Part shown: piece after piece, positions 26,015 to 27,507 of the stretch
Position numbering within the stretch: the first letter of the stretch is position 1
Layout of the letters: each line of letters begins with the position of its first letter
Assembly (NCBI GenBank): GCA_963805855.1
Contig: CAWDVW010000005.1
Coordinates: 896,001 to 960,000, forward strand
Reading direction: 5' to 3'
Length of the DNA stretch: 64,000 bases
Origin: Candidatus Dadabacteria bacterium
Lineage (GTDB): Bacteria > Desulfobacterota_D > UBA1144 > Nemesobacterales > CSP1-2
Program-made: the position numbers and the translations under genes
Notes under the pieces: generated by a model
The model's input: the letters and a program-made list of their open reading frames with translations, nothing else
Database searches by the model: none
What the model was told of the DNA's origin: nothing

Positions 26015-26124
26015 GAATCAACCCCCCTAACGCCCGAGGATATACGCCCTCTTTTAAGAAATGGGAGTTTTGAAAAAATAGTCTATCTGTTGAAATGCCG
26101 CTTCTAGCTATTTCTGATGCTGGG

Positions 26125-26913
26125 CTATCCCAAGGATCCCTTGTCGACCCACACACGGGTAACCTTAATCTGCCGTATTAGTGGTTTAATCATGGATACA
26201 AGGAAAAGTGTAAATTCTTTCTCAGCCCTTATTAAGTTGGCTCTTGGAGGAAAGTGCTCTTTCCTTAGGACTCGGGTTATCTCTCGCAATTTCTTCTCAG
26301 AATAATAGCCATTTTCTCTAAGAACTGATTGTATTTGTTTCTTTGTAGCCTTCTGAGCATCACAGTGTGTGGGAAAAGCCTCTAAGAACTGCAGAGACAC
26401 AATACAAGATATATCATTGAATAGATTGAGGGCCTGTGGAAAATATTGTCGCAGAGAATCTCTGAGCTGATTCGATAGTTTCGTCTTAAGTTCAACGAGT
26501 GATTCTCTATCCCTTAGAACGATTCCGAGCTCTTGGGTGAGTTGATCGTCTGCAGTGACTGCATTCAAAGTACTTATGTCTGTGCGCAAGACATTTGCTA
26601 TAACAAATGCGTCGAAACTATCGCTTTTTACACCTGAAGTCTTATACCTCTTTCTGAACTTATCCATAGAGTTGGAATTTATTAGATAGACCTTGTAGTC
26701 GTAGCTGATTAAAAAGTCTATAACCCTTTGATTAGAGGTCTCAATGGCGAAGATGATCTCGTGCTCTTTACACAGGTGACGAATAGTGGAAAGGGCATAC
26801 ATGAAGCCATCGAGATCATTGTTGATTACAAAATCTTTAATCGGATTACCTTTGTCATCTATGATGAACAAAGTTAATTGCTCCCAAGACCAGTCAATAC
26901 CACAGTAAAGCAT
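26125..26913 (-). pseudogene. IS110-family DEDD recombinase/transposase, C-terminally truncated
   Basis: YCGIDWS, AIET, KSDSFDAFVIA give the DEDD residues; AAGGAGG RBS; ends at 262 aa with no Ser-containing C-terminal Tnp domain. Confidence 0.88.
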
Positions 26914-26950
26914 ATCTATGCCTCCTTATTAATTAGATTTTAAATGACCT

Positions 26951-27090
26951 CGATGCTCTGTTATTCTTATATGGGTTCTCCAGGAACGTAACACTATGGA
27001 ACTTAGAGCATGATTAGCTTGGAGAGGGACATAACTACCCAAAGTGGTCAGGCCACAAGCCCACCAGGGTCCTCTCTCCAAGTTGGTCTT
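26951..27090 (-). ncRNA. Predicted IS110 bridge RNA with target-binding and donor-binding loops
   Basis: Two stem/internal-loop/hairpin units (stems 27082-27069 with 27030-27018, and 27011-27005 with 26959-26953); loop segments match the element's left junction; ends approximate. Confidence 0.75.
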
Positions 27091-27095
27091 TGGGA

Positions 27096-27104
27096 AGCAT
27101 AACA
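27096..27104 (-). promoter_or_regulatory. Extended -10 element (TGnTATGCT) just inside the IS110 left end
   Basis: Minus strand TG-T-TATGCT immediately upstream of the predicted bridge RNA. Confidence 0.5.
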
Positions 27105-27110
27105 TATAAG

Positions 27111-27131
27111 CCCACCAGTCTTGCTGGTGGG
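27111..27131 (+). repeat. REP-like hairpin CCCACCAG-N5-CTGGTGGG, the IS110 target
   Basis: Perfect 8-bp inverted repeat abutting the IS left junction. Confidence 0.75.
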
Positions 27132-27161: not shown

Positions 27162-27215
27162 TGTAGTGGAGAACTCCAGTCCTCCAAAAACGACGACCAA
27201 AAGGTCGCCGATGCA
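27162..27215. repeat. 54-bp GTAG-type REP doublet (REPIN-like), degenerate copy
   Basis: TGTAG + hairpin + spacer + hairpin + ATGCA; aligns with the reverse complement of 41899-41952. Confidence 0.75.
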
Positions 27216-27230
27216 TTTGGACTAGATTTA

Positions 27231-27255
27231 ATCGGGACTGGAAAGTCCCGACTAT
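27231..27255 (-). repeat. REP-like hairpin (ATAG-TCGGGACT...AGTCCCGA)
   Basis: Perfect TCGGGACT/AGTCCCGA stem; related copies at 40611-40634 and 41966-41988. Confidence 0.65.
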
Positions 27256-27507
27256 CCATGATAAATAATATTGTCATCAATTACGATAGGCGGGGTTTTC
27301 CAACCCGGTATCGACAAAACATTTGGAATTGGAAACCTGAATGTTTACACAGCAATTACGGTAAACCATCAGTCCCTGTCCTGGGCCGTTGCACAGGGCT
27401 TACGACAGGCTTAGGCGAAGGGTTGCTGGTGGGATGATCTATGGTCACGAGCAAGCCTGTCCTTGTATATTAATAAGTGGATCGTGACGACCTAACCAGT
27501 CAAAAAT

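Follow-up and report, generated by a model that had tools for sequence, protein, structure and literature searches.

A probable IS110-type bridge RNA gene in a broken element of a Candidatus Dadabacteria bacterium, its guides read against a REP-like target and an intact second copy

The window analyzed here is a stretch of 64,000 nucleotides from a Candidatus Dadabacteria bacterium (assembly GCA_963805855.1, contig CAWDVW010000005.1, positions 896,001 to 960,000 of the forward strand). Its minus strand carries a gene that very probably encodes a genuine bridge RNA, of the IS110/IS621 type already known, the guides of which spell both the insertion site and the ends of the element itself. Judged from sequence, the element copy in the window is a broken and immobile relic; its RNA gene does not differ from the one in the intact copy, which lies on contig C7 of the same genome. 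The RNA gene and its left junction comprise the following features.

26947..27086, minus strand: bridge RNA, matched by the covariance model over 140 positions (126.3 bits, E 4e-26)
27018..27082, minus strand: target-binding loop, closed by the stem 27082-27069 / 27030-27018
27067-27058, minus strand: left target guide (LTG), CTGGTGGG-CT
27056-27044, minus strand: hairpin GTGG/CCAC of the target-binding loop
27043-27035, minus strand: right target guide (RTG), TTTGGGTAG
27034, minus strand: handshake position of the target-binding loop
26953..27011, minus strand: donor-binding loop, closed by the stem 27011-27005 / 26959-26953
26998-26988, minus strand: left donor guide (LDG), CATAGTGTTAC
26987-26975, minus strand: hairpin GTTC/GAAC of the donor-binding loop
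26974-26966, minus strand: right donor guide (RDG), CCATATAAG
27111..27131, minus strand: REP-like hairpin CCCACCAG-CAAGA-CTGGTGGG, present in 16 genome copies at up to 3 mismatches
27118-27111, minus strand: left target (LT), which is the 3' arm of this hairpin
27109..27110, minus strand: left copy of the CT core; empty sites read ...GGG-CT-ACCC and occupied ones ...GGG-CT-TATATG
27103..27108, minus strand: right donor (RD) TATATG, with which the left end begins and to which the RDG pairs
27096..27101, minus strand: TATGCT, a -10-like half-promoter that would be completed by the TTGACA of the right end in the excised circle only

The RNA is non-coding, lies in the left end of the element and contains two loops, each closed by a stem and each holding a small hairpin, as is characteristic of bridge RNAs. 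In the target-binding loop (loop 1) the stem has a single bulged A at 27073, and the left segment reads CTGGTGGGCTT (27067-27057, minus strand). Folding with ViennaRNA recovered both outer stems and the hairpin of the donor-binding loop, whereas the segments of loop 1 were paired otherwise and the first hairpin did not appear in this single-sequence fold. The fold energy is ordinary (z = -0.91; 40 of 200 shuffles were as stable) and therefore thermodynamics alone would not pick out the region. A search of Rfam returned zero matches at E <= 1 between 25500 and 28000 of the window, i.e. no curated family covers the RNA there.

The same genome (G000; 9 contigs, 3.11 Mb) carries a second copy of the element on contig C7. 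This copy is identical to window positions 27131-26163 and then runs on, giving an element of 1432 bp when one CT is counted. Its right junction reads TTGACATAGTGTTA-CT-ACCCATTT; the TAG stop codon of the transposase gene lies inside the left donor, and the right end follows about 7 nt past the stop codon. The encoded full-length transposase (P0001) has 409 aa and the domains PF01548 and PF02371. In a profile alignment to the IS621 recombinase (8wt6; E 9e-19), its residues D7, E58, D98, D101 and S313 correspond to D11, E60, D102, D105 and S241, which are the residues named as catalytic in the structure paper of IS621 (PMC11208158). Thus, P0001 has the domains and catalytic residues expected of the IS110 family, whereas the open reading frame in the window lacks part of them. 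The genome also contains another IS110-family element with a 363-aa transposase, present in three near-identical copies (L024, L025 and L026, at C2:116675, C7:152424 and C7:641182, respectively) with unrelated ends. The RNA model described below (R2) does not match this element; in G000 it matched just both copies of the 1432-bp element, so that the genome offers no internal test of guide reprogramming.

To read the guides, we used the strand rules of IS621, according to which LTG and LDG pair with the bottom strand and RTG and RDG with the top strand, the core included (PMC11208160), while handshake guides follow RTG and RDG and pair with non-cognate DNA after strand exchange (PMC11208158). 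The window junction (27118-27103, minus strand) reads CTGGTGGG-CT-TATATG and, when extended to 27131, CCCACCAG-CAAGA-CTGGTGGG-CT-TATATG. The LTG equals CTGGTGGG-CT (10/10), and the RTG is complementary to CT-ACCCA at 7 of 9 positions for the C7 copy and at 6 of 9 for the window locus. On the donor side, the LDG equals CATAGTGTTA-C (11/11) and the RDG is complementary to CT-TATATG at 8 of 9 positions. The left donor guide pairs with the first core base only (C, followed by G where U would be expected). The pairings thus span 8+2+5 nt on the target and 10+2+6 nt on the donor. As to the handshake, U 27034, which follows the RTG, could pair with the final A of the left donor, and one of two positions pairs in the target loop; the A following the RDG has no complement in the final G of the left target. 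The 16-nt junction word is present in the genome solely at the two copies of the element.

These results largely bear out a preliminary description of the region, which had been made from the sequence of the window alone. The strings and stems it assigned to both loops were all located on the minus strand and by repeat search, and the part of its fold that ViennaRNA left without support is hairpin 1. Its loop-1 left segment is identical to the junction DNA 27118-27108 (11/11), a direct repeat (27057-27067 and 27108-27118) that was recovered independently by the repeat search as family D7; however, the 11th base of this match belongs to the donor side and not to the target. The reverse complement of CCATATAAG matches CTTATATG at 8 of 8 positions, and both right segments end in AG at nucleotide 9 past their respective hairpins. 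The proposed logic of left target, core and right donor proved correct when confronted with the full-length copy, the empty sites and the relatives. The boundary that had been placed at 27110/27108 agrees with the empty REP sites CTGGTGGG-CT-ACCC, which diverge from the occupied ones right after CT, and is also backed by a metagenome contig joining 27109 to 26160. The full-length copy ends with ...CATAGTGTTA-CT-ACCCA, exactly as foreseen for the right target ACCC. Of the proposed donor, the right part TATATG stood, but the left donor is CATAGTGTTA and not CCATAGTG-CT, the proposal having been off by the three bases TTA.

We propose the following mechanism, modeled on that of IS621. In the first loop, the left target guide CUGGUGGG-CU, being of top-strand sense, pairs with the bottom strand, and the right target guide UUUGGGUAG is complementary to CT-ACCCA. 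Jointly, the target guides specify CTGGTGGG-CT-ACCC(A), the 3' arm plus tail of the REP-like hairpin repeated in the genome. In the second loop, the left donor guide CAUAGUGUUA-C and the right donor guide CCAUAUAAG specify the right and left ends of the element. The recombinase, with its DEDD RuvC-like domain and its Tnp domain carrying the catalytic serine, would use the RNA to place the joined ends of the excised circle at the REP target, where strands would be exchanged at the CT core.

Both copies of the element sit at the same REP-like hairpin, and empty sites read LT-CT-RT (RT, right target). IS110 elements lack terminal inverted repeats and insert site-specifically, often into REP sequences, with a short core dinucleotide at both junctions; in line with this, CT is found at both junctions of the full-length copy. 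The target predicted in the preliminary description, CTGGTGGG-CT-ACCC (the 14-mer CTGGTGGGCTACCC), occurs in the genome five times exactly and 15 times at up to one mismatch, against 0.009 occurrences expected. Among the 14 unoccupied copies of the hairpin, CTACCC comes next in nine. One REP copy (C2:679303-679340) reads CTGGTGGG-CT-TACCC, with an extra T past the core, and resembles the internal GG-CT-TAC of the element. The hairpin together with the T-rich run following it scores as terminator-like. The insertion locus in the window is flanked by atpC and the gene for myo-inositol-1-phosphate synthase, the ends of which converge on it. In metagenome run X1, a 164-nt contig joins 26160 to 27109, skipping exactly 948 bases, and reads CTGGTGGG-CT-ACCCG. 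This contig provides moderate evidence that the locus of the remnant also exists empty in X1, its REP side being 26 letters long and the REP being repeated.

Further repeats surround these sites. The target hairpin often adjoins an inverted second hairpin class, GGGTAG-GTCACGAG-TCTTG-CTCGTGAC, e.g. at C2:690450-690560 and C5:428290-428360, so that two REP classes, each with its own stem, are arranged in a BIME-like manner. Another repeat, about 70 nt long (window 27231-27300, minus strand; hairpin at 27229-27254), has about 30 genome copies with 78-88% identity and may represent a second REP/MITE-like family; a variant occurs in contigs of runs X1 and X19, where 14 other letters separate 27306 from 27233. 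Between this repeat and the REP target lies a terminator-like hairpin, CGGCGACC-TTTT-GGTCGTCG plus a T run (27191-27210, minus strand).

Relatives of the element provide a test that is independent of the window. A protein search detected metagenomic homologues with identities from 93% down to about 25%; in related genomes, relatives were found at about 23-28% identity only, and the RNA is still present in them. A search of genome contigs for related loci, made with the single protein, yielded one locus, at 26% identity. A covariance model was seeded with two sequences and rebuilt from 13 (R2). In 97 sources it gave 75 matches, 73 of which lie directly 5' of a transposase match. The exceptions are an incomplete second match in L030 and a match in L118, where residue 151 is the first one covered by the transposase match. 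In an alignment of 72 distinct sequences that was fitted to the model, compensatory change is seen at each of the 27 base pairs, and 88.6% of the cells of this model-fitted alignment are paired, compared with 59.4% when shuffled and 30-50% when slid. The requirement for distinct and complete matches (70 of the 75) with at least 100 nt of flank left 60 left and 69 right junctions. Guides matched exactly over at least 8 nt at their own flank far more often than at other loci, i.e. 20/60 vs 12/600 for the LTG, 37/69 vs 20/690 for the RTG, 45/69 vs 65/690 for the LDG and 33/60 vs 55/600 for the RDG, whereby the other-locus controls are inflated by close relatives and the own-locus counts are lowered by disallowing wobbles and mismatches. 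Under the same constraints, a contiguous left junction word of at least 12 nt was explained by both guides at 26/60 own and 13/900 other loci, and a contiguous right junction word of at least 14 nt at 42/69 own and 9/1035 other loci.

Guides also vary with flanks in individual relatives, as the preliminary description had anticipated. The homologue L056 shares 67% aa identity and has a near-identical RNA scaffold, but other target guides. Its flanks, GGAGCGG-CT-TATATA and CATAGTGATA-CT-TAGCCA, agree with the LTG, RDG and LDG of L056, and with its RTG if two G-T wobbles are allowed. A single change in each of its LDG and RDG is mirrored in its own ends, and the C at the position after its RDG pairs with G in the handshake.

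These data bear on two other ways of explaining the left end. Taken by itself, the repeated 11-mer could be a coincidence, since exact repeats of 11 nt are no great rarity in 1.5 kb (about 0.3 expected by a rough estimate). However, there are four independent matches, all in the right places and orientations, and the 14-mer target inferred from the guides exceeds its expected number in the genome more than 500-fold. With the 16-nt junction word confined to the two copies, this excess of the target and the same logic recurring in relatives with other sequences, the agreement goes beyond chance, and a chance origin is refuted for practical purposes. The structured left end could also be a mere leader or regulatory region of the transposase mRNA, with the repeats being subterminal DNA repeats bound by protein. 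The loop-1 left segment is after all a plain direct repeat of the junction DNA, the fold energy is unexceptional, and a promoter-like ATAACA-16-TAAAAT overlaps the 3' end of the structure, although one such site compares with 1.4 expected in shuffles. We nevertheless consider this very unlikely: compensatory change at all 27 pairs argues for an RNA; the sense matches of the left segments and the antisense matches of the right segments overlap on the core in exactly the manner of IS621; and the loop-1 segments match a target outside the element that differs among relatives, which protein-bound repeats would not track.

Transcription of this bridge RNA would depend on the form of the element. 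The integrated copy shows no sigma-70-like site ahead of the RNA. In IS110 circles, a promoter is reconstituted across the joined right and left ends (RE-LE; PMC11208160), and joining the ends in silico gives TTGACA-17-TATGCT (10/12), the -10 of which ends 14 nt ahead of stem 1. Of 69 family loci, 35 carry TTGAC(A) at their right end. By its sequence, this split promoter would be active in the circle. The window copy is without the -35 box of the circle junction and would therefore show weak expression at most; weak RNA expression has been described for integrated IS621 (PMC13626964). In metatranscriptome X19, two 151-nt contigs fall on the transposase part (26266-26410 and 26500-26650) and no listed piece on the RNA gene, contigs being unable to show absence, strand or level.

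The remainder of the window copy is truncated and has the following parts.

26161..27108, minus strand: IS110-family remnant of 948 nt, of which 946 are identical to the full-length copy, followed by TT
26125..26913, minus strand: truncated transposase open reading frame of 262 aa, with residues 1-250 native (26913-26164) and then 12 foreign codons
26161..26162, minus strand: TT at the right junction, where the CT core is expected (a one-base discrepancy)
26100..26160, minus strand: right target flank ACCCGTGTGTGGG..., with RT at 26160-26157, similar to the right flanks of empty REP sites

Past the 946 identical bases, the window reads TT-ACCCGTGTGTGGG and the full element CT-TACGATG. The break falls at the only internal GGCTTA of the element, the other GGCTTA being that of the left junction, and abuts the right target flank. 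The window reading frame retains only DEDD_Tnp_IS110 (PF01548) with the DEDD residues, and is devoid of the Tnp domain and S313. As the serine domain and the right end are lost, the window copy could neither provide active enzyme nor be excised. The preliminary description was thus right about the bridge RNA gene, but the copy it had decoded is a relic without right end or catalytic serine.

The truncated copy might itself be an assembly artefact, a chimera of the empty locus and a full-length copy. The locus does appear empty in run X1 (in one contig, with the 26 letters on the REP side), and contigs of all three DNA runs leave the window sequence at 26163 and continue into full-length sequence. 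However, the join coincides exactly with the point where the right target flank begins and with the single GGCTTA inside the element; with about 5 shared bases there, it is one that no assembler would make. Moreover, the 9-contig genome resolves other identical IS copies, and the DNA runs compared may not stem from the source sample. We therefore regard an artefact as improbable and treat the copy as a real remnant. Among the contigs listed for X1, X2 and X5, none bridges the right junction of the remnant, which proves nothing either way.

How the remnant arose can be approached from its break. It is quite possible, if on balance slightly doubtful, that the recombinase made the relic itself by exchanging the internal pseudo-site AAGG-CT-TACG with the right junction; within such off-target bridge recombination, the relic may alternatively derive from the insertion of an aberrant mini-circle formed at the pseudo-site. 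To explain the TT at the right junction, shifted cores, TTAC microhomology and loss of one TAC repeat were considered, each of which needs an extra one-base change. If the recombinase did make it, the event would have left a solo module of left end and bridge RNA in an otherwise intact REP target, and such relics could persist as spare guide-RNA genes, usable in trans by the enzyme of the intact copy. Broken copies seem to be common in this clade. Metagenome fragments that comprise the C-terminal part only and have an upstream flank (L118, L110, L120, L121, L129 and L131) start variously at residues 151 to 263, so that no shared break hot spot emerges from them. The metagenomic protein P0007 (62% identity) lacks residues ~252-302 of P0001, a gap beginning at A251, the residue of the remnant break.

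The element resembles IS621 of E. coli (PMC11208160, PMC11208158, 8wt6) in several respects: the RNA is encoded within the left end, ahead of the recombinase gene; each of its two internal loops has a sense left guide and an antisense right guide that overlap on a CT core; targets are REP sequences; a promoter spans the circle junction (here in silico); and DEDD and serine residues are shared. Nevertheless, the recombinases are distant, with 409 aa here compared to 326-328 aa. The pairings are longer, with 8 nt on LT and 10 nt on LD, while IS621 has a 7-bp LD and an 11-bp target (PMC11208160). One core base is paired by the left donor guide here, and the donor-loop handshake pair described for IS621 (PMC11208158) is absent. 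The RNA is shorter, about 140 nt compared to 177 nt in IS621, and the space from the predicted -10 to stem 1 is apparently too small for a 5' stem-loop. A right end about 7 nt past the stop codon, with TAG inside the left donor, also sets the element apart from IS621. ISCro4 transposase (9t56) is the best single-sequence structure match over the C-terminal domain (E 1e-08) and with the A2 profile ranks next to IS621, in second place (E 2.8e-17); the relationship is distant.

A further parallel is ISPpu10 of P. putida, an IS110 element that inserts at copies of one conserved intergenic sequence with a stem-loop 5' of the target, and whose minicircle forms a strong hybrid promoter (bioRxiv 10.64898/2026.03.19.712850; PMC12288879). 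Here, by contrast, the left target is the 3' arm of the hairpin itself. Modular circles have been described for ISPpu9 (PMC12288879) and half-match recombination for IS621 (bioRxiv 10.64898/2026.08.31.748434). Both are precedents for alternative products from partly matching sites, as suggested by the break of the remnant; in the present case, however, the end product alone is seen, and the break shares GG-CT-TA with the left junction while its core is TT.

The class of bridge RNAs, REP or stem-loop targets, handshake guides and alternative circles are already in print. The literature searched contained no description of this clade, which may be listed in the supplementary tables of the bridge-RNA papers that lay outside the search. 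What the present case illustrates is that a bridge RNA can be read from raw sequence, with target, core and, but for three bases, donor predicted and then checked by means of relatives, empty sites and the second copy of the element. The case also contributes a divergent and compact pair of recombinase and RNA, with long guide pairings and a hairpin target, from a salt-marsh sediment bacterium; the pair could interest collectors of orthologues for genome engineering. The known mechanism stands unchanged, and the break points of the relic hint at natural errors of these enzymes.
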